DNA of 52,380 bases from Girardia tigrina. Taxonomy: Eukaryota. The position numbers and the translations under genes are program-made. Below the pieces are notes generated by a model. The model made no database searches, was not told where the DNA came from, and was given only the letters and a program-made list of their open reading frames with translations. The stretch spans positions 13,200-65,579 of the forward strand of contig MQRK01196200.1 in assembly GCA_001938485.1 (NCBI GenBank), given 5' to 3'. Position 1 is the stretch's first letter. Every line of letters begins with the position of its first letter. Shown in pieces: positions 5,477 to 49,284 of this stretch.

Positions 5477-5478
5477 TA

Positions 5479-6790: not shown

Positions 6791-6829
6791 TTATATAATA
6801 TATTAAAACATTATTAAAAACAAATAAAG

Positions 6830-9542: not shown

Positions 9543-9725
9543 CTAGTAAATAACCCGTCATGTATGACGGATATAATTATATTTCATATTATCTACTTAC
9601 AATTGTAAGTAGATAATTATATTAATAATAATTCATATGGAAAATTATCATGAATAATTCTGCTAATAATAATTTTCCATATGAATTATTATTAATATAA
9701 ATATCTACTTACAATTGTAAGTAGA
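9543..9725 (-). mobile_element. Helitron 3' terminus (hairpin + CTAG|T) with adjacent TCTAC 5'-end-like motifs
   Basis: Minus strand reads CCGTCAT-AC-ATGACGG (hairpin), then GTTATTTA, then CTAG|T at 9546-9543. Confidence 0.6.
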
Positions 9726-9733
9726 TAATATGA
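9584..9733. repeat. Fold-back inverted repeat: 65-bp arms (1 mismatch), 20-nt spacer, each arm containing a perfect 24-bp palindrome
   Basis: 9584-9648 is the reverse complement of 9669-9733. ATCTACTTACAATTGTAAGTAGAT occurs at 9591-9614 and 9703-9726. Confidence 0.95.
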
Positions 9734-21473: not shown

Positions 21474-22523
21474 TTTTTAAAATACTGATTACTAAATTAA
21501 GTTATTAATAATTTTAATTAAGTTTTTTATTAATGTTTTCAATAGCCAATATTTTGTGAAATCATCTTGTAGAAATATTAAGTTCTAAAGAGACAGTAAA
21601 AATGTCCTATCAAGAATTTATAGATTTTCGCCTTGCAAATCTTTATTTAAATGGCCTCAACAAACTGTCGATCAAATAGGAAAAGTGTGTCGAGAATATG
21701 AGTAAATTGTATATGATATAAATGGTATAAATTACGTTTGTTAGGAATTGGCGGATTTAAAACATTTTTGAATATTTGAAAATTAAAATATATCTAAAAT
21801 ATTTAAAATCAGAATTTTATTCAGAAGAATTTTTATAATTAAAACATATTTTCTAAATAATTTTTTTAGAATAAAAAGTTGTTTCGTCATTCAAATTAAA
21901 TTAAAGAATAACTCGAAAATTTAAAAACGGAATAAAATCAAATAACTTAACTCTAAAATTAATATGATATTTAAACGAATAACGAAAGTAAAATATTTTG
22001 TTCAGAAGATTTTCAAATGATGATTAAAATAAGATAGGTTAGTAAAATATTAGGATTTTAATTTTATGAGAGTCATTAATAAAGTCGCAAATTTATAATA
22101 TTAAAATTTGTAATAAATAACGTATAAATTTTATAATTTAATTAAAATTTAAATATTGATATTTATATTTACCAATTTTGATAACTGGTTTATGCAAAAT
22201 AAGAAAACATAGTTCCTCATAAATTTGTTTGAAAAATCGTTAATTGTTATAGAAATAAATATTTTGTATTATGAACCAACAACATTAAAATATGCTAAAT
22301 TTAAGTAATATTACATAGTAGTATACGAATGAAATAATTATAAAATTTTGTAAAATTTTTATTTGTCACAAACGAAACAATCGCTGTTGAAAGACTCTAT
22401 TGAAATTTTAAACAAATAAATGAATTTGAAAATATAAAACTTTTCATTTAATTGTAACTTAATTTGCTTTTTGAAGAACTTTAAGAAACAACCGTAATAA
22501 ATAGTTTTTTATTTTAGATTCAA

Positions 22524-22980
22524 ATGCTTACAATAATACAAATATTCATTCTCTATTCAAATGTCCAACTGCATGTCCAACTGTTGTTCAGGAATATGCC
22601 ATCAAACCAGTCATCTTATTTCGATACTAATAGATCTTCCTCTTTAGCAAATGATGGGGTTTATAGTCCAACCGGATATCTTGAAATTACTAATTGTACT
22701 GCTACTATGGGTGACTCTGTGAACTACTGGCTCGTAAATCTAAAAAACCAGTGTATATTAAAATATATAGTAATATACAATAGAAATGATGAATCTGAGA
22801 CTAATATAGTTTCTACAAAAGTAAAAGTCATAAGCCAAAATGGTAATTCGACTGTTGTAGGACAAATTGAAACAGTCGAATCAGTTTATAACATCAGCTG
22901 CAACGATGTCCCGGGACAATATGTAAAAATAGAGTTTGAAAATAAATTCCTCTCTCTCTGTGAAGTGGATGTTTTTGGGG
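22524..22980 (+). CDS. F-type lectin (fucolectin/FTP) domain exon
   Basis: QSS..SSLANDG..CTAT..YWLVNL..IYNRND..C..GQYVKI..LSLCEVDVFG. Polypyrimidine-AG just upstream and a GT donor at 22981. Other exons were not identified. Confidence 0.7.
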
Positions 22981-23759
22981 GTAATATTTCATATTTATTC
23001 GAACCTCAATTAATATATTTATATAATAATAAAATATTATTTGCTTTCATTTTATTAAAAAATACAAACACATTACCAAGTGAATTAAATAATAAAGATA
23101 AAACATTTACAAACGTGAGTAAAGAACATATGAACGTTGTTTCTTTATAATTCATCAATGACCTTTGAGAAAAATTAAATAAAAGTATGTCATTTGTATA
23201 TTTATTTAGAAGAAAAGGGTCATCATAAAATATAAAATTTGATGACATTTGACATACCATTTTATGGTTAAATAATTTATTTCCTTAGTGTTAAAACATT
23301 TAAATATTATAACGAAATGGACTCAATTAATATTTGTATTTCTTAAATAACGTTTGTTATGATTTACATAATATTTTATATATTTATAATTTTGTATTAT
23401 AATTTTTGAAAGAGGCAGAGAAAGAGATTGTGATAAATAAAATGTATAATAATTTATTTTTACAACAATTTGATATTTTATTTCGAATTAAAAAAATTTT
23501 TTTTAAGAATTAAATGTTGTTTTATTTTTAAAGAGAAATAAAAAAGAAATTTCTTTTAATTATATGGTGTTCCGATCAAATGGCCGAAAAATAATTTATT
23601 TAATAAACAGTTGTTTAAATAATATGTGGGTGATGACACCTTTTTAAAAATACTATTTTAAATTTTGTAAGTTAATTTGTCTTATAATAAATGTCGGCTT
23701 TGTCATCGTTATTTTGACTTTGTTATTTTTTTAATTAATAAAAAATAACAACGTGCAAA

Positions 23760-24450
23760 ATAATGCGCCGTATTGGAGATCTCCGCGCTCCCAGCGACCG
23801 CAACAGAGCCGGAGAGACGGGTCGGGAAGCCGTCACCGACTTGTTGAGAACTCAATGCGGATCGTCGCGCCGACCGGTGGCAATCAGGCTTGAAAGGTTC
23901 ATGGCGTCCACCGAACTGGCCGATCAATTCTACCATCCGGCATCTTCCCGCACAAATAAGAGGTGCTGGCCGGCACAAGTCAGTCCGGCAGCAGGACCTT
24001 CAAATTATAATTTTATAATAAACCATTTGATCGCAGAGCGGCAGTTTGAGCACGGCAGCCACGCCCAGATTTCTTCAACTCGTATCTTGTTCTTGTTTTA
24101 GATTTTTGATTTCGGCGTAATAAATATAGCTTATTTAGATATTTAATTTTATAAGCAAACAACACACATACTGTTTCCATTGAACAAGAACCGCAGTCAA
24201 CATAATCCTCAAGAAACAAATATCTATCAGTTGATGATTTTCCACAATTTTGAAAAATTCTCATTATATCATACCAGTGACCATGAATGTCTCCACAAAT
24301 TTTAGTCGGTGCTGAAATTTCGTCAGTTTCTTTGATATGTAATCTCTGATCGGGAATTCTTACATGATTATCTTCAAATGTTTTTATAAAATAATCCAGA
24401 TTAAAAATATAGTCAAATGGTAAAGTTATCTGTTCTTTTAATTTAGACAT
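23760..24450 (-). pseudogene. PP1: Intron-less protein phosphatase 1 catalytic subunit pseudogene
   Basis: KICGDIHGHWYDIMRIF, YLFLEDYVDCG, LFAYKIKY..LLRRNQ. The GC-rich 3' half retains LPL, DLCRPAP (~DLLWSDP), GW*N-DR and QQVGDGF (~HQVVEDGY). Confidence 0.85.
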
Positions 24451-24974: not shown

Positions 24975-25455
24975 TAATATATTAAAAAATTTTAATGACT
25001 GTACAGATTTATTATAATTATTATTATTTAATAATAATTTATAATATATATCTATTTATATGTTCTCAAATTTAGAATCTTAATGATATAAAGTTAATGA
25101 TTTATGAAAAAGAACTTTGTAAAAGTGATGCTTATTCAAATGTGTATGTTTTTTAATAAATATATTTTAATCTTTCTTTTGTTATTTATTTTTATTTTCA
25201 AAATATTGTTCAATTTTGAGACTGGAATCATTCTAATTTGGTTTAAAAGAAAAACAGGAAAGGAAAAATCACTTACAGGAAGAAAATACACCAACTAAAT
25301 ATATTTTGTTTATCTATATATTAGTTTTTAATAAGAATATGTTATTCACGATTTTGCCAGATCTTGAAGGGCGAGATCCTTCGATCACAAATAAAAATTT
25401 AATGTCCGTATATTCTGAGCTTAACATACTTATATAACTTTGCGACATCAGAATT
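24975..25455 (+). repeat. ~480-bp dispersed repeat; inverted copy at 38660-39155
   Basis: For example TTATTCACGAT.TTGCCAGATCTTG...ATATAACTTTGCGACATCA and AAAGTTAATGATTTAT..AAAAGAACTTTGT.AAAGTGATGCTTATTCAAATGTG match the reverse complement of the second copy. Confidence 0.85.
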
Positions 25456-26243
25456 AGGAACGTTTAAAGAATATATTATTATTGTTCATTAGAGAGTTTG
25501 TTGCCGTTGCCACTGAGTTGCCCCAGAGAAATGCTGTAATAATAGTAACAATGGAAGTCGTGCTGGGCCAGGTTTAAAAATTTTCTATTTTTCATGTTGT
25601 TCTAAAGGAAATAAAAAAATTTTTTACTTCATTTAAATGGACAATAATCGTGTTTTTTAAATACAAAGGAAATAATAATTATCGTTTCAAAGTTTCCCAA
25701 ATCGTAAAACAAATTCGTTTCAATTTTACATTTTTCACAATATCGTGAAAATAATCATTCGTGATATTTACAACATTAACAATAATAATTTGTGAAATAA
25801 CAATTTTTAAAATTTTCGATCTTCAGAACACTAATCAATTCAGTTTTAAAATCGTATTAAATTAATAGCAATACGATTTTACAAGTGTCAAAAAGAATTT
25901 CGATTCTTGACGATTTTTTAAAAACATAAAAAGTGATATTTTGAAAATCTCTGGATGACTATAACTCACTCTGATTGGTTAATTACTTAGAACGAGTGTA
26001 TTGGCTCAATAAAATTCATCATTTGAGATGAATCTTCAGGAAACGCGGTAAAACCCCAAATCAACATATTTGGTCAATCTTCGAATTCAGACAAAGAACT
26101 CTTTCTCTGGATTTTAATTTAAATCAATTCAACTCAACTGTGAATAAATATTTTAAGTCAATAATTAATTATTTTTTCTATTTTTGAAAATTTAATTATT
26201 TTAATTCAACATATTTAACTTTTCAAACTCACAGACAAAATAT

Positions 26244-29025: not shown

Positions 29026-29439
29026 CGAATCCAACGGATCATCTTAACAACATGTTCCTTATGATTAAGATTCACGACCCAATAGTTCAAGAATTCCCAC
29101 GCGGAAGTACATCCTTTTTTTAAAAATTAAAACTGCGATCGGATTATACACTCCATCATTTACTAAGGAGGAAGGTTGGCCTATATTAAAATAGGATTAG
29201 TGACTTGTTTGAAGAATATTGGAAAACAGAATTACTGCCTGTTTCAGTTTGATTTCCGAACAGAGAATATTCTTATGAAGTTTAATGAAAAATAATTGAA
29301 ATAAATTTTTAATTTTGAAATTAACTTATTAGTTTCATATAGAAATAAATTCCTTCAACAATAATGGATTCTCCTGAAGAAGAATAATGAACATTTTCGG
29401 GATAAACGAAATCGCATGTTGTTATTATATAAATTGATT

Positions 29440-30880
29440 CAGGGCTCGAAGTGAGCCGGGATGTGCCGGTATGCCATAGCGCCACTTGTTTTCGAGGCGG
29501 TATGACATACAGGCACTTATTTGATTTTAAGGCAGTATGATTTTTAAGGGGAATACCGGCTCATACCGGCACTTGATTTTCCTAAGGCTTAAAAATTGGA
29601 AAGCATTTATTAAGGAATGAATTATATGGCTACGCTTACGTCTCACCTCAACTGCTATATATGATGCCTCACACAAACAAACGCACACACAAGAACAGCA
29701 TAATGTAAGCAGGAGTGTAACTACCCCTAACGACTAACCGTAATGTCTTACTCTCTCTTTCTATCGCTCCCTGCCACCACTATCTCTCTCACATATACAC
29801 AAACCTCACACACGAGTGTGTGCGCTGTAGATAGAGTAGTAGATAAATCGGGGTAGTGGAAAGGATGCCGACGTTGGTGTCGATTGCATTTACAAAATAT
29901 GTCAGCTCTAGATAGTTTATTGTTGACTGGACACTTAGTGAGATCTGTAGTTACTATAGTTACCATTACACACGCTGGTGAATATCTTTATTGTGTAGTC
30001 AATAAGATTTAAACGGAGAATGGTTTTTAGTTTCCCTCAGGGTTCGTTAATGTGTGGGGGTTGTATATAATTTTGGGTGAGCGGAAATGAAAAGAAACTG
30101 TAGAAATAAATACTCGAATTAGATAAACCAAATGTCAACAAGGGAGTATTTATTTCTACTTACAAAAGTAATTATGGGCAATTAATTGCTAACGTTTAAC
30201 TACAATATCACGAATAAAAAAANNNNNNNNNNNNNNNNNNNNNNNNNNNNNNNNNNNNNNNNNNNNNNNNNNNNNNNNNNNNNNNNNNNNNNNNNNNNNN
30301 NNNNNNNNNNNNNNNNNNNNNNNAGAATTTCAATAAATAGGTAGTTCGTATTTGGATCATCAAAATAGTCTAAGAATGACGAAAATGACAAAATAGTTTT
30401 CCCGGAGTTGATCGGCAAGGTCTGAATTATTCTTATGGAAAACTGGTTTGGATTGTTGAACGACAAGTAATGGCTTTGACTGATTGAAGTTGCACGGATA
30501 AAATCCTGATAATTATTCGACAAGGTATTTGGATCGACGATGTCGCATTAACTGAGTTCTACGACTAATATTTTTTAACTTCATTTTTGTCGATTATTGT
30601 AATCAATTTCATCGATTTCTTGTTTTTTTATATATATTATTTTGTATATATATATATAATTTTATATACAATTTATTATGCATAATTCACATATAATAAT
30701 TTATATATAATAATTGTCTGGGTCACTACAGAAACCACTGTTTTTTTAAATATATTAAAAAATCGGGGAGGGGGCGTGGGAGTGTACGTCAGGGTGTTGG
30801 CATTGGGCAGCGGAGGAGCAAAATCACTGTATGGCCGGTTTCCGCATACCGGCACTTATATTTTCCCACTTCAAGCACTG
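29440..30880. mobile_element. Non-autonomous hAT element with 8-bp TSD AATTGATT
   Basis: TIRs CAGGGCTCGAAGTG and CACTTCAAGCACTG; TSD at 29432-39 and 30881-88; sub-terminal (AT)ACCGGCACTT repeats; the empty site is visible in a paralogous segment at ~31915. Confidence 0.9.
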
Positions 30881-31534
30881 AATTGATTTATATTCATTTA
30901 TTTTGCTTCATCGTACAAATATCATCAATCCTGCTTTCCGAAGCACAAGACATCTTGAACAGCAAAGTCTAATTATAGGGGTATTGTTTAAAAAATCCTT
31001 TAAATAGGGTCAATTTAAACAATAAAACGTTTTGAATTTTTAAGTATAAATATATTAAATTAAAACAAATGTTTTAAAATATCAATTGTTTTAAAACAAT
31101 AATTATTTCAAAACTAATCGAATTCGTAAAACTTATGAAAAATTTTAAGTAATGTCTATGTTTAAATTTCGTGTGGTCAAATGTCACGGAACCATTTTAT
31201 ATCACCAACGATCAAAGTGCAAAATCAATTAAATGTTCTTAGTTTATATTATCGATTTATTAATTATATTATTCTACTTACATATCCCTAAAAAAAGACG
31301 GTATTTAATAACTACAAGAAGGATGTAAACTATCAAAAATTAGGTTTATAAAACTCAAAACTTATAAATTTCTTTTTTCAAATTCACAAATGGTACTATT
31401 TAAATCTCATTTTACTGTTCATTTAGCAAACCATCCTTGGATTCTATGGATGCTGAACTACTTTGTTTTGTCATCATTATATGGCTATCTGTACATTTTT
31501 CAGGATAAGGATCTGCAATTCGTCTTTCCCAAGA

Positions 31535-31940
31535 TTGTAACTTTGATTTTCTAAAGTTTCATTATTGCATAGATTATGTTTTTCTTGTTAAACGGTGTCC
31601 GTTTTAATATCCTTAACATTTACTTTGGATTTTCATTAATCATGTTAGACTCTAACAGTTAGAGTATTTTGTTTGATTCTTCAAGTTATAATTATTTTCG
31701 GCTCTTTTATCATTTTAGCATGATCGTTTACTTTTACTTCCAAACTTTTTACTTTTTTACTTTTACTAAACTAGTTCATTTCCACGTTTAATTTTGAAAT
31801 TAATTAATATTTTAGTTTCATATAGCAATGAATTCCTTCAACAACAATGGATTCTCGTGAAGAAGAATAAGGGACCTTTTCTGGTTATAGGAATTTGCAT
31901 GTTATTATTATTTAAATTGATTTCATGTTCATTTACTATG
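31535..31940 (+). repeat. Locally duplicated blocks (31535-31740 ~ 33528-33716; 31790-31940 ~ 29310-29439 + 30889-30905)
   Basis: Shared TTGTAACTTTGATTTTCTAAAGTTTCATTATT... and AATTCCTTCAACAA.AATGGATTCTC.TGAAGAAGAATAA... Confidence 0.85.
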
Positions 31941-32338
31941 TTTTATACATCATAATTTGTATTGTTTTAAAGGTTTTATTCATATAAAATTAGTCCCAGA
32001 TGATATATTTCGTCCATCCACAGGAAAAAATGTGTCTCTAATATAAATGATTAAATATCAATTTTTAAATGTCCGTCTTAGGGGACTTGATTTAATACAA
32101 CTGAATTTTATACAAAAATAGATTTAACCAGCACGAACTTTCAAATGCTACTAACGTTTTGTTATTAATGATTAAGTTGGTGTACAAAAAGTATTGTTTC
32201 TGACAAAAGAATTGTTTTATATGTTCCAGGTAATTTTTATATTCCGTTTACTAAAATGCAAATTGTTTTTTATTTTTGTGCTATGACTAAAGACTTCACA
32301 ACATACTGTAGATAAACGTACCCATTCTGCACCATAAA

Positions 32339-33500
32339 CCCTTTGAGTCACAACTAGCGCGTTTTCTCGAAAATTATATACATGAAAGAGAATTATGTGC
32401 ATAAATGCTAAACATATCTACTTTTGAAAAGAAGTCGACAAAGTGCGCACAATAAATATTTTTTTGAAAATTTCGAAAATTCATATAAATTTAATATAAA
32501 TCAATATAAATCAAAAGAAGTGGCATAAATCAGCATTATCAATACTTTCTGTCATAGTCCAATACAGTATAATAAGGTATGAAACAGTCTGGAACACACA
32601 AAGGTACCTCATTTAAACATTGTTCTCACGTAAAGGATGTTTAACATTGAAAACCACGTTCACTACACACAGAACATCTCGGTCTTAGATGATGACCATA
32701 GAAACTGCGCGGAAGCAGCGATGGGAAATATCGTTCAACAAGTCTAGGCTAAACTGCCTGATATTTTGGTTTGTGTAAGTGTACTCTTTTACCCAATACT
32801 TCGTGTTTCTCAAATATTTTTCAAGCCACTATCAACTTAAAATCGAAGAATTGCATAGAAAATGTAGTTCTCTTTGTGAAGATAGTATATGAATTAAAGA
32901 GAGCAAGATCGATAAACAGCAAGAAAACTCTTTTAATATCATTTTACCAACTTTCTAATACATACCATAAACGAAATCTGCATATCAACTTTATCCCCGT
33001 ATTCATGAAGTAATTATAATAAATCACACATGTTGGTTTCCTAATGGGACTGTTGTCCATATTTCATTTTCCCGAATCAGAAATTGTCGGCTGGTGCAAT
33101 AAAGTAAGCATATAAACATCTCTTTAATCTTTCCACTTTAAAGCAAGAATGTCCTCTTATTTGCATGTTCAATCTGTTCCTTACATAACTGTCTAAACTT
33201 GGAAAGCCTACAATATTTTTACGAACTGTTCCACAAGCATTTATTAGATACTGCTCGAGAATACAAAATAATTTTGAACTTGTACACCATTTTTCTACAT
33301 AAAGATTATGACCTATGTTCAAAAATGTTTACATTAGTGTCATTACGATCGATACGCTAATTCCTTTTGTTTCTGCCATTATTATTTCAGTCTGACTACC
33401 CACGCAAATAATAAAATCAAGTGAAACTATCGAACCACAGTCAACAAGTAAGAACATTCATACACAAATCGATTGCGTTTGGATGGGATGAATTTTTTTT
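32339..33500 (-). mobile_element. piggyBac (PGBD4-like) transposase 3' remnant with terminus
   Basis: IPSKRNRF, GHNLYVEKWCTS, ACGTVRKN, KWKD*RDVYML, and the C-terminal RCSVC...EQC..VPLCVPDCF. (T)AAA-CCCTTTGAGT resembles a TTAA-CCC terminus at 32339. Confidence 0.8.
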
Positions 33501-34768
33501 ATTGTTAACATATGACTGTCTATTCATTTTTGTAACTTTGATTTTCTAAAGTTTCATTATTCCCTAGATTATGTTTTTCTTGTTAAACGATCTCCGTGTT
33601 AGTATCCTTAACACTTACTTTTGTATTTTCATCTATCATGTTTGAGTTTTTTGTTTGATTCTTCAACTCATAATTTTTTTCAACTTTATCATTTTTAGCA
33701 TGATTGTTTACTTTTAATTTTAAAAAGGAACAAAAACATTAACTGAAATGTTTAAGGTCCACGTTAATCTGTTCATAAAAACAAAAATAAATATAAATTA
33801 TTTAAATGTAAAATTATTTTAGGCTTGAAATATCAATTAGATTCAATTTTATGGTTGTATGTTACAATTGTTTCTTAAATAATAATATAAATGATATTAT
33901 ATAATATATGATATATTATTTTATAAAAAACAATTTTTAAAGGGTGGTTAGTAAAAAAATTATAATAAACGCAAATAATAGAAAAACAATGAGTGATTTA
34001 CAAGAAATGTCCTCGGATCAGGTGAGTCAAAAGACAAACAATATTTATAATATATAACTTTCAGATACTCTGTTTAGATGTTATGCAACGATGTCTCTTT
34101 TAACGAAAAAATGTAGATTATTCGGGGGGCCGAAATTGATAGATGATTATCTCCGATTAGATCAGGAAACGTAAGATTGTTGAAAAGGTATAGCTAGAAT
34201 TGAATAGAATTGATGACTGAGAAGAACATACATAAGAAGAAGAATGTACTGTATTAATTTTACAATAGTGCAAGGAGAGATTCACAGTTTCAAGAAAAAT
34301 AAATACGGAGAAATTCGATGTTGGTTGTTGGCCAACTCGAAATTCACTGGATATTACTATAGACAATTTAAAATAATATAATAATATATTTAAAAATATA
34401 TTTATTTCAGAATATATATATATATATATATATATATTCTTTAGATATTAATTTTTTTTAAAAATTACTAATTTAATATAAAATGAATTTATACAATAAA
34501 TGTTTATCAGAATTTGTAAAATTATGAACAAATATACTTTAGTTTCTATTTTTAACTTTTTATTTATTTATTAATTTTTTATTTTATTAGTACACATCAT
34601 TTATTAGAAAACGATTTTTCAGATTGCTAAAATGTTTTGCATATTTGAAAGATTAATTAAATTATATTTAAGTGAAACAAATATTATTCAAAGATTTTAT
34701 TTTTATGAAAGCACAAATATTCTTCTAAAAAATCAATAATTGAAACCAATCGTTATTTAAAAGGTTCA

Positions 34769-36001
34769 TCAGTACCTTCTGTTTTGATTCCTTTCACAAT
34801 CTCTTCTTGATCTTGATGTCGAACAATCTCTTTTATAAGTATTATTATAATGATCTTGCTGTTCTTCATAACGATAATTTGTGTTTCGCGATTGATTTCT
34901 TTCATCACATTCATTATATTTATTTGAATTTATTCTATCATAATTATATTCGTCATAATTTCTTTTGTAATCTTTATTTACTTTATTTCTATCGTAAAAA
35001 TCATCATAATTGTTTCCTCTTTCTTTTCTACTGTTATTGTATAATTCATTTTCGTATTTTCTTTCATTATAATAATAATCTTCTCTTTTTCTTCTATCAT
35101 TTCTATCATAACTTTCATTTCTATATTCTTTTGTCTCTCTTTTGTATCTGAATTCTGATGTTTTTAATTTCTCATTATCCTTATATTTATCGCTATTGTA
35201 TTCCTCATATTTGTTTATTATTTCACATTCTCTCTTTACTTTCTTTGAAGATTCTTCTAAATTTCTTTCGTTTTCTGATGTTTGTGAGTAATTTCTTTTT
35301 CGATTTTGTCTTTCAATTTGTTCGTTTTGATATTTATCTTTTACGTTATTATTATTATTGTGAAATTTATCTTTTTTGTATCTTTTGTCTTCGAAATNNN
35401 NNNNNNNNNNNNNNNNNNNNNNNNNNNNNNNNNNNNNNNNNNNNNNNNNNNNNNNNNNNNNNNNNNNNNNNNNNNNNNNNNNNNNNNNNNNNNNATGTTT
35501 TCCGTCAGATGTTGAAATATGTTTTTTATTTTCTTTTTGATATTCTTTGAATATATCTTTTTCACAAACTTTTTTATAAGTACTAAATGTATTTAGGATT
35601 TGATCAGAAGAAAATTTTTTGAGAGCTTCGCAATATTTGATCCAATTGTTTTCATTAAAACCAAAATTAAAAAATTCCGATAGATTTGCTCCAGGTTCTT
35701 CCCAAGGCTTTTTGTCTAAAGTTCGTATATCAAATTCGACTGTAGAAACATTATTGATATTTCCAGGATGATCTAGATCTATAAAATCGTTTTTTGAATA
35801 TACTTTCTGTTGGAAAGGTTTACATTTATTTTTGAAATTGGTAAACTTCTTCGTATTGACCTTCAATGGTTCTACAGATACATTTTCTGGTACCTTAGTT
35901 ATAATCTCGATGTCGTTATCGGACTCGTAATCATACAAGTCAAGTGTACTTTCCTCATTCAATCCTTCGACAATTGTTTCTATTTTATTGGAATTTGACA
36001 T
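34769..36001 (-). CDS. FIP1: Single-exon FIP1-like protein (copy B; spans an N gap)
   Basis: IDLDHPGNINNVSTVEFDIRTLDKKPWEEPGANLSEFFNFGFNENNWIKYCEALK, paralogous to 10879-11976, with an RE/D-rich tail. Frame continuity across the gap is assumed. Confidence 0.8.
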   Translation of the reverse strand: MSNSNKIETIVEGLNEESTLDLYDYESDNDIEIITKVPENVSVEPLKVNTKKFTNFKNKCKPFQQKVYSKNDFIDLDHPGNINNVSTVEFDIRTLDKKPWEEPGANLSEFFNFGFNENNWIKYCEALKKFSSDQILNTFSTYKKVCEKDIFKEYQKENKKHISTSDGKHXXXXXXXXXXXXXXXXXXXXXXXXXXXXXXXXXFEDKRYKKDKFHNNNNNVKDKYQNEQIERQNRKRNYSQTSENERNLEESSKKVKRECEIINKYEEYNSDKYKDNEKLKTSEFRYKRETKEYRNESYDRNDRRKREDYYYNERKYENELYNNSRKERGNNYDDFYDRNKVNKDYKRNYDEYNYDRINSNKYNECDERNQSRNTNYRYEEQQDHYNNTYKRDCSTSRSRRDCERNQNRRY

Positions 36002-36626
36002 TTTTCGATTTTTAACTGAAATTGTTGTATATAAAATATCTTATACAAAAAGATGTATGGGAAGATAAAATAAATTAATTATATTTATCCAACATGTAAT
36101 TGGTTAAAATTAAAATTAAAATAATATTTTAAACAATTACATATGTACTTTTTATGTCAAATATTATAAGTATGAAATATTTCTCAAATTTATGTCTACT
36201 TTTTACATTTTTGGATACTAATTTCAAAAAATCTCTTTTACTATACCTTTTTGGTCAACACGAATAGATTCACCCTTATTAATTTAAACCTATTGCTTTT
36301 TGTGAAGTGTTAGGTTGCTGTAGATTTGACCATTTTGAGGTAAGAAAGATTAGAAGGTTTTTGGATGACACTTTCTGTTTTGTAAAAAAATATATATCAT
36401 TGACAAAGAAATCTGAAACAGAAATTCTTTCATGATGAAATTAAAAAAGCACGGAAGAATAAATCCTTAACCGTATCTCAGTCAAAGTCTTACTCCGCCA
36501 CCGGTAACTTCTTGATACTGACACCAAATCTTCTTAAACGGCACATAATCTAATCTCTCTACGTCACAGTAATCAAACCTCGAGTTTCTCGTTTTCTATT
36601 AATCCACCAAATGTTCATTCACAACA

Positions 36627-37732: not shown

Positions 37733-38330
37733 ATGGAGATCGTGAAAAATATGAATGTCGGCAAAGCGACAGTTGAGGGATAAACGAAGATCGTTTATGA
37801 AATACCGGATTCTGACGGTTTGTGCTTGATTGTGTCCAACGGTAAAATAACCGACGGTGAATGTGTGAAGAGTTACTCGGTGGAAGGCGAAGTGGCGATT
37901 AGTACGAAAACGGCGACTCATATTTTCGAATTATTGTTTTTTGCTGGTATAAAAAGTCATTTTATTAAGCAACATTTCGATACTAGTTTTATTGCTAAAA
38001 AATTATATGATTCCAATTGAGTAGGTCACGAGAAGTATCGCTACGGGATCTTTTCTAAAGAGAAATATCGGTGTTCCCGTGGGTTATAAATTTTGTCCGG
38101 TTAAACAAGAAACGTTTTTCAAAAATGATGCCAATCACGATCCACAATGGTCTTACGAGCAGTTAGTTGCTGCTGAACTGAATATCGGGCCGAAGCAACG
38201 GATTATAACAGAGAAAGATATTCGAGTTATGTTGGAAATAACAATCGCGATTTTTAAAAATTTAGAAAAATTTTGGAGAAGTTTAAATTGTCAATTAGTA
38301 GATATAATGATTGAATGCGGCGTTGATGAC
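37733..38330 (+). pseudogene. PAICS: Intron-less 5' fragment of PAICS/ADE2 (SAICAR synthetase domain)
   Basis: VGKATVEG*TKIVYEI, AISTKTATHIFELL..AGIKSHF, GYKF...ETFFKNDANHDPQWS.EQL, LVDIMIECGVD; contains stops and a frameshift. Confidence 0.9.
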
Positions 38331-38659
38331 TGCCTTCGATTACTTGATGTTCGGTGCGATTCTTTGGATTCGCGAACGTTAGTTGTTTATTTTTCCCCTC
38401 GATCCTAAGCCTGCTCCCTAACACCGGAGTGTCGCGGCCACGCATCTGCTGCGCCCGCTCTCGCACCACATTCAATTAAGATTTTATGAAAAGAATAAAA
38501 GTCACATAATAATTTTAAGCTAAAATTATCAATAAATTATTTTTCTAAATGATATATCTTCTCAAATTTTCAATTAGTTTCTTCTTTTTATTACAACTTT
38601 GAAACCATTATATTTACACGATTCAAAAATGCGTTTCCGCACTTTTCTTTAATTGTTTG

Positions 38660-39049
38660 TAATTTTGATGTCGCAAAGTTATATAAAAATGTAAAGCTCA
38701 GAATATATGGACGTTAAATTTTCATCTGAGATCGAAGGATGTCGCTCTACAAGATCTGGCAACATCGTGAATAAGGTTTTCTTCTGGAAACCTTTGATAG
38801 ATAAAGAAATGATATTTAGTTGGTGTATTTTCTTAATGTAAGTAATTTTTTCTTTCCTGTCTTTCCTTTTAACCAAATTGTAATAATTCCAGTCCCAAAA
38901 TTGAGAAATATTGTTAAGATAAAAATAAATAACAAAAGAAAGATTAAAATATATTTATTAAAAAATATTCACATTTGAATAAGCATCACTTTCACAAAGT
39001 TCTTTTTTATAAATCATTAACTTTATATCATTTAGATTCTAAATTTGAG

Positions 39050-39090
<41 letters not shown>

Positions 39091-39155
39091 TATAAATTAT
39101 TATTAAATAATATTAATTATAATACATCTATACATTCATTAAAATTTTATTAATA
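38660..39155 (-). repeat. Inverted copy of the 24975-25455 repeat
   Basis: Reverse-complement match to 24975-25455, with an expanded (TA)n. Confidence 0.85.
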
Positions 39156-39825
39156 TGGGTTGCCTCATAAGTTTTGTCACAAAAAATACCAAAAAAACAT
39201 CATAATACAATAAAATATAAAATATTTTATCAATTGTCCACGTTATGCAAATTGGAAAAGTAGTGACCATTGTGCTCAATACATCTCAGCCAACGTCAAG
39301 GGAGGCTGCGCATCCCATTTAAGAAAAAATCACGCGGCTTCTTGTCAAACCAATGTAGAAGATCTTCGTTGATATCATTGACACAGGCACAATTATTTCC
39401 TCTAAGTGCACATTTCATTGGAGAGAATAGATAGTAGACAGATGGTAAGAGATCGGGGGAGTATGGTGAATACAAGAGCATTCAGCTTGTCCTTGGTCTT
39501 AGCAGCCGTATGTGGACGAGCATTATCGTGGAGATAATGAACATTGTGTTTTCCTCCATGGAGCAACCGTCTGCGACTCTGTTGAACGGCGATAATGAGA
39601 CGATCAAGTTGAGTACAGTAGACATCTGCATTGATTGTACCATTTGTAGGTTATACATCTAACAAGAGCAGACCTTTACTGTCCTAAAAGACGGAAGCGA
39701 GATGTTTTTGGTTTGTCAGTCTTTGTGGCGGTGTTGCAAGTGGGTTTTCATCCGATTTCCTCCATGATATATTTTTGAAAGCGCCTTCATTGTCCGAGTA
39801 TACACATATCTCATCAGTAGGATGA
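39156..39825 (-). mobile_element. Mariner 3' half (5' part lost at the junction with the LTR-element leader)
   Basis: TA-TGGGTTGCCTCATAAGTTTTGTC terminus; TINADVYCTQL, HYLHDNARPH, SPYSPDLLPSVY. Confidence 0.88.
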
Positions 39826-39874
39826 ACATGTATGTTTTAGACAAATCAATAATTAAACCCACCGGAGGTTACCC

Positions 39875-40266
39875 GTTGCCATGACAACGGTTCCGGTTAC
39901 CATAGCGACGTTCGTGGTTACCATGGATATGGTCACGGTCACCATAGCAACGGTCGTAGTAACCTTAGCAACGGTTCCGATCACCTTAGCAACGCTTTTG
40001 GTTGGTCCTTGGTACCCTAGCAACGGTGCCGGTCCACTTGAAAACGCTTCTGATTGGTTCCCGGTACCCTAGGAACGGTCGTGATAACCTTAGCAACGGT
40101 TCCCTTCACCTTAGCCTAGGCAGCAACGGTAAACAAAGTCTTAGTAACCATTGCAACGGTAACCAAGGGACATTTTTCATTAGCAACGGATACAATGATT
40201 CAAGGCTGTTATAACTATAGTAATTGTAACCATATTCATAACAACCGTGACCCTTTCCTTAGCAAC
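39875..40266. promoter_or_regulatory. Phased array of RFX X-box-like palindromes with interspersed CCAAT/Y-boxes
   Basis: GTTGCCATGACAAC (39875), GTTACCATAGCGAC (39896), GTTACCATGGATAT (39917), GTCACCATAGCAAC (39938), GTAACCTTAGCAAC (39959), ATCACCTTAGCAAC (39980), GGTACCCTAGCAAC (40011) and more; CTGATTGG at 40050-40057. Confidence 0.7.
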
Positions 40267-40485
40267 CAAAGAAAAAAGTGCTAATCGATCGCTGCACAGT
40301 ACCCTAATGTGCTAATCAATATTTTTAAAGGGCTAATCGATAATGCACATTGTGCCGCACATTTTAAATTTTCAATCTACACTTGTGTAAATGTGCAATA
40401 ATCAATACATAAAAATTGTTAAAAGTGCTAGTGTCAAAAAAAAATATTTTAATATATGATTTCTGAACCCTATTGTTACAATTAA

Positions 40486-40503
40486 ATCCCACATCTGACA
40501 CCA
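40486..40503 (-). other. tRNA-Leu primer binding site
   Basis: Minus strand TGGTGTCAGATGTGGGAT, 17/18 to the complement of the tRNA-Leu(CAA) 3' end (TGGTGTCAGAAGTGGGAT), directly after the LTR end. Confidence 0.85.
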
Positions 40504-40505
40504 AT

Positions 40506-41321
40506 TAATATAATGGGTTTTATTACCACTGATTAAATAATATTACGAAATTGAATACGTAGGATTTATTTACAACACCACAATTAAAAGGGATTAATAA
40601 TCAACTTGTATACACAACAAAAAATAATCTTACAAAAATAATCGTAAATTGTTAAGATTGTAACCGTACGTCGCTACCCATAAATCGACGTAGAACTGTC
40701 AGGATAATATGCTCTTCGATCCGTCTGAAATTCGGGATAAACCGTTACAGATTTCGTTGTGATCACAAACTGTTTGTTACACCCAACAATGAATACAGAC
40801 TGTCAGGATAATAATCTCTTCGATCTGTAGTAAATTATGGATAAACTGCGTCACGATAAATTATTCAGTATAAATCAAGTATCTGAATTATTAAAGTACG
40901 GAATTCTGCATCATATATTTTTATTGAATTTTTTTAAAACTGATCTCTTAGCGATCATTGATCATTTTATTTTAAATCCATTTTCATTTTAATTCATTAT
41001 TATTTATACATGACGAATTGTTTTTTTCTTTTTTTCTTTCTCCACTACATTTTTTTCCAAAGTGATATTTTCTGGATTAATTATTTTGCCATTTTTTGGT
41101 GATAAAACAATTTCAAATTGTTAACAGCCGACATGATTGCTTTCAAACATTTCTCAAATAAAATTAAACAAAATCCATATTCAGCATGGATCTATCTAAA
41201 AAAACAAAACCCCAACAAATTAACGCATACACCTCAGATCAAACAGAATATAAACAATTTAGAAGATTTCCCGAAGGGAACGATCACGCAACAATGCATT
41301 AACTAAAATTAATATACTATA
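40506..41321 (-). repeat. LTR (inverted 5' LTR)
   Basis: Reverse complement of 45397-46131 (the right copy lacks ~100 bp); internal ~100-bp tandem duplication (CTGTCAGGATA...CTCTTCGATC). Confidence 0.9.
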
Positions 41322-41381
41322 CCTAAACATCTTAACATACAAATTTTTAAAAAAAAGAAAAAAACTTAACAACAAATTATT

Positions 41382-44300
41382 ATGACAAGTAAACAAAGAA
41401 AACCACTAAACAAATATAATTCATTTGAAGATTTATCCTCAAGCAACAACGACACTGCTTACATTAGCAATCTTGATAAATCACATTTCAAACTACCGGA
41501 ATTTTTTACGGACAAACGTCATTCACCACAACAGTGGTTAGACACATGCATTAGTATGTGTACTTTTAATGGCATCACTAATCATAAACAAATCTGTACC
41601 GCACTAATCAACAAATTAACTCCCGATATCATAATCAAAATAGGAAATGACATAAAAAAATTTTCATTTTCTAACAAACCTCTAACGCTACTACGCGAAA
41701 TATTCACTAAAATTTATCCAGTCAACCAACATGCGGTTTTAGAGGGATGTTACTACGATATCGAGTTATGGGATAGAAAACCCTCTGAATATTTAACCGA
41801 TCTAAATTGTAAAATAACAGACAAAAAAGGTGACCTCAATAACGAGTTAATATAATTCTTCTTTTATCGCATATTACCAACTCACATCAAAGACATTCTA
41901 TTAACACGGGAAGATCAGGGTATTGATTCTCTGGGAATTATAGCTGATAGATTATATGGCAATTTGCAATTTAACGTCTATACAGTATCCAACACTATCC
42001 CAACTTCAAATAAACCATCCAATGATGATAATTATAACATACTCCTAGACAAATTTAAGGAACTATTTAATGAAAATAAAAGTTTTAAAAAGGAGATTCT
42101 GGAATTAAAATCAGCTAGAGAAATCGAACTTTTCAGATCTAGTGGAGACTATGACAAAAAGACCATGTCATAAATCAGAATCTCCTAATAATAAACCAGA
42201 ATGGTGTTACTACCACAATAGATTCGGAATAGAAGCATTCCGTTGTATACAACCATGCAAATTCAAATCACGTATGCTTAACCTAAAAGGTTGTCCAGCT
42301 TAGCACCAATGGTGACTTACCTAAACGGTGTTTTCACGGTGCACCTTCTTAATTGTTCTTTTCGTTATTAGTTGACTTGGGATCAATAGTTTCAGTTCTA
42401 CCTGTTTCGCATTATAAAGAATACCGTTATGTTAATAATGTTAGACTTTATGCGGCCAATGGCTCCGAAATAAGGACATTTGGTCACAAGACTCTCAAAA
42501 TAAATCTGGGGAATAATTGGTATAGTTGAAACTTTATTATTGCTGAAATTCCCCAGGCAATATTGGTGCCGATTTTTTGTCCCATTTTGGTTTACTAATA
42601 GAATGCCAGAATCAAACTTTATTTACTAAAACTTCATCAACAAATAAGGTTCGCGACAACTCTATCGTTCTATTCAAAGATATACACTCGAATATTTTAA
42701 ACACCATATTACCTAGAACAAAAATTACAAATTATTATCGCTCACAAAAATATTGTAATCGGATCAGCTACTAACCAAAAACAATCGAATCAGTTACGAA
42801 CACAAACGAAACATTCGATGAAATGAATAAAGTGGGTTTATTGACAGAAAAATATAAAACAGATTTAGATAAAAAATACCATGGTACATCCAACGGCGAC
42901 CCAACACCTACAATCAATGAATGCACACCAAAACAATCGAATAAGAATATAGTGTCCGATCCAACCATACACAAACTATTAACTCTACAAGAATCACCTT
43001 GCTAATAAGAAACATACGTCCAGCCCGATACTACGACACATCACATAATAACTAATGGATATACTATCCATGAAAAGGTACGACAACTTTCTCCAGAAAT
43101 TTATCTGCAGCAAAAGAAATATTTAGTAATATGTTAGAACAAGGGATCATACAACCATCATCATCCAATTGGTCCTCCGCACTTCTAATGAAGAGAAAAA
43201 AAGATAATACTTGGAGATGTTGTGGAGATTATCGGTGGTTAAATGCAATAACAGTCAAGGACGAATATCCCTTACCGTTATTAAAGGACGCGACTACCAG
43301 ATTATCAAATGCCGCATATTTTAGCAAGATCGACCTTGAAAAGGCATACCATCAAATACCGGTGGCGGAGGATGATATTCATAAAACAGCTATTATCACG
43401 CCATTCGGTCTGTTCGAGTATAATCGTATGCCGTTCGGTTTGAAAAATGCGGCATCAACATTCCAAAGACATATGGATCAAATATTTTCGAAATATCCAT
43501 TCGTGGTCAGCTATTTAGACGATTCCTCTAAGTGCACATTTCATTGGGAGTATAAACCAAGAAGACCATTTGAAACATGTGGAAACCATATTGGACATAC
43601 TAAAAACAAATGAATTAAAAATCAACATTGAAAAGTGCGAGTTCGTTAAAAAAGATGTAAATTTTTTATATCATAATATCAGAAAAGGAAAAATAGCTCA
43701 AATTAAAAACAACAGGGATGTAATATCAGCCATTACTCCTCCGCAGACAGTACGAGACATAAGAAGATTCTGTGGAATGGTAAACTTTACCACCAGTTCA
43801 TTCTACATTGTTCGGAACTTCTGTCTCCGATCAATGAAACCAGAAGAAACAAGCAAAAATAGAGTGGACCAACGAATTGAACATTATTTTTGAAAACATT
43901 AAACACGAACTTAACAAAATCACTGAACTGTCAATGGTACTAAATAATACCATATTAACGCTCACTACTGACGCCTCGAATATTACTATAGGTGCCTCGT
44001 TATGTCAAGTGATTGACTATATTGATTCTCCGATCTCTTTCTTTTCTCAAAAATTAAAATCAACTGAAACGAGGTATTCCACTTTTGATCGTGAGTTATT
44101 AGAGATTTTTCGGGCTGTTAAACACTATCAGTACTTAATAGAGCGTAGGAGTTTCAATATACGTACAGATCATAAGCCACTGGTAAGGATATTCGATATA
44201 GAAAACCCAAGTCCAGGTAGTTACACCAAATATGTTTCTTGTCTCAATTTGACTGTAAAATACAATATTTGGCATTGAAAAGTAATATCGTAGCAGATTG

Positions 44301-45349
44301 TTTATCACGTTCTTACATCAATGAGATAAAATATCTACCTATATTTGACATAGAATCTTTAAAAGGCAATCAGGAATAGGTACGTTTAGAATGTTTTAAC
44401 ACCTTATTAAAATTAAAAAAATAAAAGACATATGGTTTGATCAGTCAATAGACGGTTACAATAGACCATTAATTCCAGAGAACCCCAGAGACAAATGCAT
44501 AAAAGCCATACACGAATTGGGACACTATGGGAACCAAGTTACATACAAAATGCTCTATCTACAAATGTGTTTGCAAAGATGCGAAAAGATATACAAAAGT
44601 TTGTACAAAAGTGTATTGCATGTAACAGAAACAAAAATAATACAAAAAGATTTCCACATTGAAGAGATAAACTAGAATAGTTGCATGTTGATATTACTGG
44701 TCCACTTCCCCCGAACAAAAATTTCAGGTACTTAGTCTGTATAATAGACTTTAAGACTAATTGGTTTGAGGTTTTATAAACAAAAGAAATATCATCTGAC
44801 AATATCGTTCAAGTAATTGAGACTCATTGGATCTGTCGATATGGACCATCGAAGATTATCGTGACAGATCAAGGTAGACAATTTGAGTCTTCACTGTTCA
44901 AAACACTGTGTACTAAGTACAATATAAAGAAGATTCGTACAACTCTTTATAATCCTCAATCGAATGGTAAAATTGAAATCTTCCATAGATATTTTAAACA
45001 AACACTGAGGACTAAATGTAACAATTCAAATTGGTACGATAACATCTACGAGACTTGTTTGGCATTAAGAATCAAACTATATTCTATTACCAACAAATCA
45101 CCACTAGGAAACCTCAAAGGAAAAACGTTAAATTGGAATCTGTTTCGATCAATCAGTTACAACAAAGACAATCTCGTATCGAATAAGAATAAGTATACGG
45201 AGGCTTATGTTAGAAACTCGTTAGCTAGAAATTTCGAAGATAAGTTTGTTGGACCGTATCCCGTAAAATGTGTACAGAATAACACAGTAACTGTTGACAT
45301 AAAGCAGAAAAATAAAACAATCAATTTACGCAATGCCAAATTAAGATAA
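41382..45349 (+). mobile_element. Ty3/gypsy CsRn1/Kabuki-type gag-pol, degenerate
   Basis: Gag FKLPEFF and CHCC motif WCYYHNRFGIEAFRCIQPC (~42202-42260); protease LLVDLGS; RT IDLEKAYHQIP, MPFGL, YLDD; RNase H TTDAS, RELL; integrase TDQGRQFES, QSNGKIE, FVGPY. Confidence 0.93.
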
Positions 45350-45396
45350 TATCATATTCTTTTACACAAGCTCCGCTTTTATTGGGTGGGGGCTAT

Positions 45397-46131
45397 TGTA
45401 ATATATTAATTTTAGTTAATGCATTGTTGCGTGATCGTTCCCTTCGTGAATTCTTCTAATTTGTTTGTATTCTGTTTGATCTGAGGTGTGTGCGTTAATT
45501 TGTTGGGGTTTTGTTTTTTTTAGATAGATCCATGCTGAATATGGATTTTGTTTAATTTTATTTGAGAAATGTTTGAAAGCAATCATGTCGGCTGTTAACA
45601 ATTTGAAATTGTTTTATCACCAAAAAATGGCAAAATAATTAATCCAGAAAATATCACTTTGGAAAAAAATGTAGTGGAGAAAGAAAAAAAGAAAAAAACA
45701 ATTCGTCATGTATGAATTAAAATAATGAATTAAAATGAAAATGGATTTAAAATAAAATGATCAATGATCGCTAAGCGATCAGTTTTAAAAAAATTCAATA
45801 AAAATATATGATACAGAATTCCGTACTTTAATAATTCAGATACTTGATTTATACTGAATAATTTATCGTGACGCAGTTTATCCATAATTTATTACAGATC
45901 GAAGAGAATATTATCCTGACAGTCTGTATTCATTGTTGGTTGTAACAAACAGTTTGTGATCACAACGAAATCTGTAACGGTTTATCCCGAATTTCCGACA
46001 GATCGAAGAGTATATTATCCTGACAGTTCGAAGTTGATTTATGGGTAGCGACGTACGGTTACAATCTTAACAATTTACGATTATTTTTGCAAGATTATTT
46101 AAATGTAGTGGTAATAAAACCCATTATAATA
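45397..46131 (+). repeat. 3' LTR preceded by PPT (GGGTGGGGG, 45384-45392)
   Basis: TGTAATATA start right after the purine tract; matches 40506-41321 inverted. Confidence 0.9.
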
Positions 46132-46269
46132 AATATCATGTGTTTGATGCACATTTTGATTCTCTATCTGAATATGCAATTAGAAATTTTTTTGTGTACG
46201 GAGACCAGTTTTATTTAACATTTAGCTGAAAAAATTAAAAAGTAACTTATCATAATGCTTATATAATAA

Positions 46270-47095
46270 TTACCCTCATACTTTTGATTAATTTACCAAA
46301 CTGTACTTTGTTATATGATCAAAAGATTAATATACAGGGTATGTAGCTTAACTTCATGTTATGAAATTTTTGATGATGAACTCGATACGCTACATAACAG
46401 ACTTAGTTATAATGGATATAATATAAAATATCTAAATAAGATCATTTATAATACGGTAAAATCAATCTATTTAAAACTAATAACTTTATCAATATCAAGC
46501 TTAGTGCTTCTGAGGAAGAGACTAACACAAAGAAACATTTCTAAATTCCCATACTCTGTATAACAAAGAGTTGTAAAAGACTTTTTGAAAAATAGTCTCG
46601 AGTAGGCGTTAAAACTAAATTGGGTTTCCTCACTGACAAAATATTTAATTACTTTTCCAATAAATGAAAAACACAATTTGGTATGAAAGCAAATTTAGTC
46701 TACCAGTTTAAATATCACAAGTACATTGGGGAGACAAATCGTCACCTCCGAACTAAAATTGCTGAGCATACCCAATGAAGTAGAAAAAGCTCTATTTTAG
46801 ATCACATTAAGAGCTGTCATGGAACACACAGGAAAGTAAATGAGAGTGATTTTCGGGTTTTGATTAGTAATTTTGACTGTAACTATGAAAGGATTATTAC
46901 TGAAGCACTGTTAATTAAGTTTCATAAACTTTGTTTAAACATGCAAAGTGATTCGTCCAATTATATTAGAGTATTCTGATGTAAGACATGATGTCATAAT
47001 GGTCTTCCGACTACAAATGCAACAGCGATTTACTTTCTTACAGAACTGACGATACCCCAGAAGTGGCGAACATGTTTTCCAATAAAAATTTAGAT
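46270..47095 (+). mobile_element. Penelope-like element 3' part (RT thumb + GIY-YIG + 3' UTR)
   Basis: LIYRVCSLTS...FDDEL...NGY; NLVYQF..KYIGETNRHLRTKIAEH..ILDH..DFRVL..RIITEALLI...LN. Confidence 0.85.
47043..47079 (+). ncRNA. Degenerate minimal type I hammerhead ribozyme (Penelope-associated)
   Basis: GAA-CTGACGA-tacccc-agaa-gtggc-GAA-CATG-TT-TTC: CUGANGA box, stem II, GAA lacking one A, palindromic CATG stem III; AATAAA follows. Confidence 0.55.
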
Positions 47096-47605
47096 TAAAA
47101 TGACTTTATTGTTTTTTATTATTAAAAATGATATTAGACAAATTGAATTTATTAAAAATAAATTGTACATTATACATTTTATTTATCAGAATCTCTTTCT
47201 CTCTGCCTCCCTCTAAATGATTAGTTATATAAAATATAAAATATATAGCATTTTCAGAATGAAATTGACGATTTTCCAAATTAAATTGACAATTTTTTAA
47301 ATAAATATTATTTGAAAATTAAAGATATAATATACTTTTATTAACAAAAAAATAACAAAAACAATTCAGATAAAATATAAAAAAATATACTAAAAAGAGA
47401 TTGTTTTAATTAAAGATATGCTCTTGTGAAGTCAAAAACATATTCTTCTTACATGTCTAAACCATTCTTCACTATCAAGAGAAGTGATATTTGATATCGC
47501 TTCCTTTATGTTATTCCCTAAATTAAGCCCTCTCCCTATGAGTAAGTTTCTTACACATGTTTTTATTTTACTAAAGCTGAATTCTATCGTGTTTAACATA
47601 TATGA

Positions 47606-47890: not shown

Positions 47891-48294
47891 AGATAATAAT
47901 AAACTTAGTAGTTATCTTTTTGAATAAGAATACGAAAGAGCCGCATGAAAGAAACTTAAATTTTATGATGTATCATGGGGTTATTGAAGAATCGTAATCC
48001 AAACAATATTTTTTCATTGTTCAAATTGCATAAAGAACATGTTCAATAATATTAAATGTAATTATAAAGTTTAGGAATAGACGTTTTTCCAAGTTGGACA
48101 GTCCAAGTTCTTTTTAAATATATTAAAGAAATATAATATATTCAATATTATAAAAAATTTAAAAGTTAGAAATTTTATTTTGAAAGATTTTGATTCTGTT
48201 AATTTTTATTGGATAATTAAACAAAAATAAATTTATCCGTTTTCCCATTTACCCTTTCATGATGTTTTAATTATACATTTGATAGATAAAAAAC

Positions 48295-49284
48295 ATGAAT
48301 GAATATTGGGAGAATCTAAAGAGTAAATTAACTAAAGCAGTCGAATTACAAAAGAAAAAGATCAACAATGCGAAAGAAAAAACAGTAAATAGTAACAAAA
48401 ATCTAAAAAGAAAACATTCACAATCGATCACAATATCGAATCAAAGTTCATGCAGCAACAATAAAGAAAATAAAAGTAAAAATGATCGCGATCCTTCATT
48501 CGATATACCAAATAAGAAGATAAAACTTGATAACAACTCAGATGGTCTAAAAATTATATTAAAGAGAAACAATTTGGACAAAAATTCTTGGTTTATTTAT
48601 TCATCATCAAAACTCGAAAATAATACTCAAATTAGTCCTCATTCTTCAAACAACAAAGAGATCATCGAACAGAAAATCGATCTTAAAACAAGCCTCTCTC
48701 AGATCCAAAAACACAATTTATCAAAAAACGAAATACCGACAACCTCTTCACAAGAACCCTATCAAACTATAAATGAATCTATAATTAAATGTCCAATTTG
48801 TTTAGAATCGATTTCCAAAGACATCGCAATTATACAAAATTGTAAACACGAATTCTGTGAGACTTGTATTAAAGAATGGCTCGCTCATCAAACCACATGT
48901 CCTATGGATAGAACTATTCCAACACAAGTTATCATTTATAAAGACTTGAATAAAAAGATAACTAAAGAAATTATTAAAAATCCAAAACAATTGAAACAAA
49001 CAATTGATGAATATGAAGAAACGAATGTTTTATATCTGAATGATGAAGATTATATAAATGCAGAAATAGAAATTGAAGAAGATCCTAATGATGAAGAATA
49101 CGTTGTTGAAAGTGAAGAAGAAAGTGAAGTTGAAAGTGGAGATGAAAGTGGAGATGAAAGCGAAGTGGAGATTGTAATTCCAACTCGAAAAAGCAAAAGA
49201 AATCAAATAAATCACAATTTGAACGAGAACGTCCGTGCTTGTAGATTTAATTTAAGAAGTCGTTCTAATATTAATTATTTATAA
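48295..49284 (+). CDS. Single-exon RING-finger protein (PHRF1/SCAF11-like C3HC3D RING) with a basic N-terminus and acidic tail
   Basis: Open 329 aa; CPICLESI....IIQNCKHEFCETCIKEW....TTCPMDR; NLS-like LKRKH and NKKIK; AATAAA at ~49327. Confidence 0.75.
   Translation: MNEYWENLKSKLTKAVELQKKKINNAKEKTVNSNKNLKRKHSQSITISNQSSCSNNKENKSKNDRDPSFDIPNKKIKLDNNSDGLKIILKRNNLDKNSWFIYSSSKLENNTQISPHSSNNKEIIEQKIDLKTSLSQIQKHNLSKNEIPTTSSQEPYQTINESIIKCPICLESISKDIAIIQNCKHEFCETCIKEWLAHQTTCPMDRTIPTQVIIYKDLNKKITKEIIKNPKQLKQTIDEYEETNVLYLNDEDYINAEIEIEEDPNDEEYVVESEEESEVESGDESGDESEVEIVIPTRKSKRNQINHNLNENVRACRFNLRSRSNINYL

Follow-up and report, generated by a model that had tools for sequence, protein, structure and literature searches.

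Several described systems resemble the rearranged Gypsy-derived element analysed here, which lies between about positions 39816 and 46133 of a 52,380-nt stretch of Girardia tigrina DNA (contig MQRK01196200.1, positions 13,200 to 65,579, forward strand; the whole stretch is called the window below). The autointegration inversion circles of human immunodeficiency virus (HIV) and SISYPHUS, as the cited portions of PMC7197481 and PMC2644782 describe them, share with it the order of segments and the reversal of the outer end of a long terminal repeat (LTR) onto an internal site. Such circles lie outside the chromosome and contain two LTR-to-internal junctions, whereas the locus has one: its U3 end meets an internal site in reversed orientation, to within 0–5 nt, and the U5 end is not joined to the other side of the target site. 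Ty1 reportedly also forms autointegration inversion circles. In Arabidopsis, a reverse insertion of EVADE in a member of its own family likewise placed inverted LTRs a few kb apart, and these were proposed to be a hairpin source (PMC11624286, in the part cited); there both copies are complete and young and the host is a plant, whereas here most of the presumed pair is gone and the element is a Gypsy in an animal host. Aberrant integrations of HIV and avian sarcoma-leukosis virus (ASLV) resemble the locus in having one clean end, another end that is trimmed or joined in reverse to element DNA, a host deletion and no short duplication, although the cited part of PMC5041404 deals with cultures under drugs or with mutants and does not cover a germline retrotransposon copy. 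For the locus we favour, at a probability of roughly 0.4, an origin in which a sister copy inserted in antisense into the leader of a first copy and a deletion followed; the weights that we attach to this and to the other origins are judgements and were not computed.

The element is a real, oddly arranged and dead Gypsy relic. Self-BLAST revealed that its LTRs are inverted, not direct as in an intact insertion, and its segments run from a reversed leader, primer-binding site (PBS) and LTR through 60 nt of leader to gag-pol, a polypurine tract (PPT) and a forward LTR, with the PBS on the strand opposite to gag-pol and the PPT. This layout had been claimed in a sequence-only reading of the same DNA, and self-BLAST, the PBS, the PPT and the order of domains all bear it out. 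The features, including the reverse transcriptase (RT) domain, are as follows:

39156..39815, minus strand: left flank, a mariner 3' half that runs from the catalytic domain to the terminal repeat, from alignment and Pfam Transposase_1
Somewhere in 39816..39862, no strand: junction 1, between the mariner and the reversed leader, from sequence comparison
39863..40485, minus strand: reversed 5' leader with a repeat array of 21-nt period at its far end, the minus-strand continuation after the PBS
40486..40503, minus strand: PBS of tRNA-Leu(CAA) type, read on the minus strand from 40503
40506..41321, minus strand: left LTR, reversed; its outer (U3) end is 41321, or 41316 if 5 nt were trimmed (junction 2)
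41322..41381, plus strand: A-rich leader piece of 60 nt preceding gag, AT skew +0.36
41382..42300, plus strand: gag, with a CX2HX9CX3C (CHCC) motif at 42205, one stop and one frameshift
42341..45349, plus strand: pol (protease, RT, RNase H, integrase), interrupted by frameshifts and stops
43523..43547, plus strand: 25-nt patch identical to the left-flank mariner (source match 39397-39421)
45378..45396, plus strand: G-rich, PPT-like sequence, read directly and adjoining the LTR start
45397..46132, plus strand: right LTR, its U5 shorter by ~85 nt; its end (junction 3) lies between 46128 and 46133
46315..46976, plus strand: right flank, 5'-truncated Penelope-type element (GIY-YIG), to which residues 283-505 of the relative P0126 align

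The evidence on the origin of this arrangement comes mainly from its three junctions. At junction 2 (41321/41322) the outer end of the left LTR meets the 60-nt leader piece, 0–5 nt from the LTR end. The first 5 nt of that end carry two mismatches against the right LTR, at 41320 and 41317, both of them transitions, exactly as the sequence-only reading had noted; its placing of the joint at the outer LTR end stands to within 0–5 nt, although the same bases read equally well as an LTR trimmed by 5 nt. Two mismatches in 5 nt would be unusual for a precise, integrase-made end at the observed divergence (p 0.008–0.025), while five unrelated bases would match as well with p 0.16, and once the prior on a trim is allowed for, the two readings are about even. 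Under either of them the break lies at an end of the complementary DNA (cDNA) and not at a random point. The spacing between the junction and gag, previously put at ~60 bp, is exactly 60 nt, because in the alignment an 81%-identical relative has its first residue at the gag ATG (41382). At junction 3 (46128-46133) the right LTR is nearly complete, ending within ~5 nt of its expected end. Junction 1 has no LTR end: the leader, reversed as had been claimed, meets a mariner that is cut inside its catalytic domain, and its left end, formerly given as 39826, can be placed only within 39816-39862.

The flanks had gone unnoticed in the sequence-only reading: a cut mariner on the left, unrelated DNA on the right and no evident target duplication. 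The close mariner relative P0121 aligns through residues 129-328 to 39815-39233 at 86%, and its residues 1-128, the 5' half, gave no match near the left flank. Beyond 39815 similarity to the mariner stays at chance level, with 170 of 400 null segments (42.5%) doing at least as well, and a back-translated profile likewise detected no extension there. The mariner terminus occurs once at up to 3 mismatches, with the second good terminal repeat missing. On the right, ~180 nt (46133-46314) have neither a mariner match nor an assigned identity and are followed by the Penelope-type piece, whose relative P0126 carries RVT_1 and GIY-YIG. Since the left flank is a cut mariner and the right flank is unrelated to it, the two are not halves of one target, and a search for a target-site duplication over all junction choices returned only AT-rich 4-5-mers. 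A mariner truncated in mid-gene, with neither a matching flank nor a duplication, implies that host DNA was lost at junction 1. A search for templated patches at junctions 1–3 gave only matches of chance length. A hammerhead was suspected after the Penelope piece and found to be unsupported (folding z +1.4).

In the origin that we favour, copy 1 would have integrated normally, junction 3 being its right end, and a sister copy would then have integrated in reverse into the leader of copy 1, 60 nt before gag, leaving its outer LTR end as junction 2. The nested pair would have formed a long inverted repeat, with gag-pol-LTR arms around a 1.5-kb spacer, from which a later deletion would have taken the left arm, the 5' end of copy 1 and host DNA up to the middle of the mariner, thereby creating junction 1. 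The order of these events, the involvement of two molecules and the role of the inverted repeat in driving the deletion are what we infer. Nesting with deletion is preferred because junctions 2 and 3 lie near LTR ends, as expected of cDNA ends, and the deletion at junction 1 is indicated independently by the absence of an LTR end there and by the cut mariner without its 5' half. A second copy followed by deletion had already been listed among the possibilities by the sequence-only reading, and it is this proposal that accounts for each of the three junctions and has parallels in the literature: EVADE of Arabidopsis is described as nesting within itself in antisense (PMC11624286), and Drosophila elements as nesting in opposite orientation (PMC5932611), each in the part cited. 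A precise inversion in place, also suggested there, is insufficient on its own, since it would explain neither the cut mariner nor flanks that do not make up a single target.

The LTRs themselves align by self-BLAST over 40622-41319 and 45399-46100 (96.7% identity over 702 columns), and their U5 tips match separately (40505-40550 with 46085-46132). Pairwise alignment counts ~21 substitutions, two small indels and ~85 nt missing from the U5 of the right copy, which is ~735 nt long against 816 nt for the left; the deletion is bounded by a 7-nt repeat. At its junction, 46101-46111 is an 11-mer identical to LTR 45667-45677, a match in the chance range. The two LTRs share a 199-nt stretch without any difference. 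A 223-nt substitution-free run (p 0.016, chosen post hoc) suggests some conversion between them that would blur dating. G/C was kept 9 times in the left copy and 8 in the right, so that the two appear equally old. Whether the two leader pieces were once contiguous was judged from an 8-nt match of the pre-gag piece to the cut end of the leader, its best along the whole leader. The significance of this match is weak, 5.9–6.7% of 1811 GC-matched segments doing as well, and the hint vanishes when the whole 60-nt piece is tested, where 26.5% of the 1811 score as well; the bases of the match could also be mariner. Coding sequence cannot bridge the two pieces, gag relatives beginning at the same ATG.

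Four observations weigh against nesting with deletion. The equal apparent age of the LTRs is what a single-molecule origin predicts outright. The best leader match of the pre-gag piece falls at the cut end (8 nt, p 0.05–0.07), and if the pieces were indeed contiguous, nesting would require chance agreement or a break that happened to fall at the edge of the stem. The two mismatches in the first 5 nt sit badly with an end supposedly made by integrase (p 0.008–0.025, as above). Finally, comparisons within the window turned up no remnant of the deleted arm or of the 5' end of copy 1.

The same observations bear on an origin from one molecule in one event, which we regard as the close rival of nesting, though on balance doubtful. 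Here integrase would have put the U5 end into the chromosome, and the U3 end would have become attached backwards to the element's own leader; a half-site attack by integrase, or a host polymerase primed at the loose end, could have made that link. The leader's freed 3' end would then have been sealed to host DNA, the intervening sequence being lost. Such an event would account in one step for the three junctions, the absent duplication, the host deletion and the equal ages of the LTRs, and it is consistent with a junction 2 trimmed by 5 nt (p 0.16 for a chance match) and with the weak 8-nt hint of leader contiguity. It has precedent in HIV and ASLV, where the bad end of one-ended integrations is often trimmed, may join viral DNA in either orientation and may be accompanied by a deletion of flanking host DNA (PMC5041404, in the part cited). 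That precedent, however, is limited to cultured retroviruses that were mutant or treated with drugs, the hint of contiguity is lost over the whole 60-nt piece, and no inverted duplication of 4-5 nt can be pinned down. Among the literature matches listed, there was no report of a one-ended self-attack product fixed in a genome.

Decay of the coding region adds a further difficulty for a single molecule. Relative to P0275, gag is 81% and 79% identical in two frames and has its stop at 41853, and pol, compared with three relatives, has 8 frameshifts and 7–8 stops; gag-pol is dead. As the genes are broken and the PBS points away from gag-pol, the element is unable to replicate. The 9 stops in 1289 codons exceed the 2.6–3.4 expected for a single molecule from LTR divergence (p 0.001–0.009, values that include the three of the nine stops that sit in a poorly conserved linker), so that a one-ended origin requires added LTR homogenisation or an already defective template. 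Frameshifts number 9 against 5.7 expected (p 0.12). Overall, the comparison of ORF (open reading frame) decay with LTR divergence does not separate the origin models.

A patch inside the RT domain may link the left flank to the body of the element. Positions 43523-43547 are an exact 25-nt copy of mariner 39397-39421, in the same orientation and 4126 nt away; 200 shuffles gave no match longer than 19 nt, and the BLAST hit extends over 33 nt at 94%. The patch directly follows the catalytic aspartates, and the reading frame shifts there (~43527). In its simplest reading it would come from a template switch during repair that used short similarity. Should the adjacent mariner have been the template, the flank would be physically joined to the body and mis-assembly would be less likely, although another copy of that mariner may have served. 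The patch also points to template switching with this flank, or with another copy of the mariner, and thereby supports an origin by repair after insertion, in which such switching would have removed host DNA and turned around the LTR-leader segment of one copy that had integrated normally. Equal LTR ages fit such a repair as well. We consider it unlikely: a chromosomal break within 5 nt of the LTR outer end has no reason, a deletion is needed too because the flanks do not come from a single split target, and the template would lie 4.1 kb off, whereas templated insertions come mostly from within ~100 bp (PMC8421209, in the part cited). A combination of the two preceding ideas, in which a one-ended self-attack was fixed in the germline and closed by template-switching host repair that also left the RT patch, we hold to be slightly more doubtful than the one-ended event in general.

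Mis-assembly would mean that short reads from different genomic copies were joined via a shared LTR or leader. Its appeal lies in the scaffold N gaps of 22–129 nt, which would be typical of short-read scaffolding, and in the 199-nt run common to both LTRs. No N run lies in or near the element, those of the window being at 243, 18699, 30223, 35398 and 49670. There is no shared sequence at junction 2 to misjoin through, a misjoin within the inverted pair would just turn the middle around, ~21 substitutions and 3 indels separate the two LTRs, and the mariner match in RT ties flank to body unless another copy was the template. Taken together, these points make an artefact quite improbable.

Two further origins would need additional steps. 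The sequence-only reading had offered a fixed autointegrant as one of three origins, and a canonical two-ended circle re-entering the genome would indeed give the observed segment order (PMC7197481). This is the origin we disfavour most strongly and believe in hardly at all: in an inversion circle an LTR end sits on each side of the internal target, the joint between U5 end and leader is absent here, and the circle would need to have opened exactly at that defining joint, the right LTR abutting host DNA. Circles of this kind are, moreover, described as non-productive in the cited parts of PMC7197481 and PMC2644782. A head-to-head dimer or a pair of adjacent divergent copies, trimmed by one deletion at the palindrome centre and another of the left arm, would place junction 2 where it is, since the centre of such a palindrome lies at the LTR outer end, and inverted tandems of LTR elements exist in Drosophila (PMC5932611, in the part cited); as it requires two separate deletions and nothing specific supports it, we give it very little credence.

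If nesting with deletion is true, the event is of a known kind and the locus adds another rearranged relic to a region dense in repeats. If instead a one-ended self-attack is true, a 'suicide' route of virus-like particles and cultured cells would be shown to be heritable, and it would have a countable genome signature, namely an outer LTR end turned back into the leader of its own family. LTR finders that require direct repeats would miss an element of this type.

The inverted LTRs could also pair with each other. Of the 684 21-nt windows of the stem 398 are perfect, and the loop measures 4.1 kb. The formation of double-stranded RNA from this pair, put forward by the sequence-only reading, is thus structurally possible, but no promoter of the element faces the loop: judged by orientation both LTR promoters point away from it, the left one towards the mariner fragment and the right one towards the Penelope fragment, so that a transcript over both LTRs needs read-through from outside or antisense LTR activity. 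If read through, the inverted repeat may be a candidate hairpin source. Recombination between inverted LTRs flips the middle instead of deleting it; such a pair cannot collapse to a solo LTR, and the ~700-bp inverted repeat can therefore persist. Mu killer of maize is said to be a transposon-derived inverted repeat with a known flanking promoter and silencing effect. Both it and the present element are long inverted repeats that could give a hairpin on read-through, but here the loop is 4.1 kb long and promoter and silencing are only candidates.

By its content the sequence is Ty3/Gypsy in origin, as judged from gag followed by protease, RT, RNase H and integrase on the plus strand (with rve and Integrase_H2C2 domains in pol), and from a PBS after one LTR and a PPT before the other. 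It resembles the CsRn1 clade in the CHCC motif of Gag, the order of pol domains and an LTR right end without the usual ACA, whereas that clade has a PBS of tRNA-Trp type and LTRs of 146–383 nt against ~816 nt here, according to the cited part of PMC2582038 and of its table. We do not file the element there, because its PBS is of Leu type. DIRS-1 reportedly has inverted terminal repeats and a tyrosine recombinase. Membership in the DIRS group was rejected, the element having a DDE integrase, a PBS and a PPT, and pol being fully accounted for by Gypsy relatives. The PBS agrees at 18 of 19 nt with a published tRNA-Leu(CAA) antisense probe, compared by eye (PMC7997516), and at 11 of 12 with the 12-nt start of a Leu PBS described in PMC8905726, both in the parts cited. 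No tRNA genes were found, and Rfam gave 0 matches across 38500-47600.

The reversed leader folds with z -4.6 against 20 shuffles, partly due to its palindromic repeats, and its far end probably belongs to the element. Its array of 21-nt period (39860-40270) holds all 6 of the window's matches to one half-site pattern and, with a loosened full pattern, 5 of 10; these half sites we take to be a putative X-box/RFX-like motif.

The window as a whole (~29% GC) is rich in fragments of mariner, Tc1, Penelope, Gypsy and polymerase B, a make-up that suggests an animal host. A second, unrelated Gypsy-type pol relic lies at 1818-4880 (minus strand), and no LTR pair was found within 1-9000. Two diverged, inverted and uninterrupted ORFs with a Fip1 motif (10876-11976, plus strand, and 34769-36040, minus strand; DNA 70–81% identical) may represent an old duplication or retrocopies, and a degenerate (74%) copy of the left-flank mariner terminus (10754-10836) ends 40 nt before the first of them. 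A 500-nt repeat without assigned identity is present in inverted copies at 24979-25471 and 38645-39156 (85% identical), the second adjoining the mariner terminus, and diverged direct repeats, likewise without assigned identity, occur at 29308-33719, ~2–2.5 kb apart and 82–90% identical. Fragments with Pfam matches include DNA polymerase B2 (17020-17868, minus), F5/8-type domain (22518-23150, plus), metallophosphoesterase (24013-24450, minus), SAICAR synthetase (38025-38408, plus) and RING finger (48286-49284, plus). The window also contains a near-perfect (97%) 68-nt hairpin at 9584-9733 and an exact 52-nt tandem duplication at 12506-12609.

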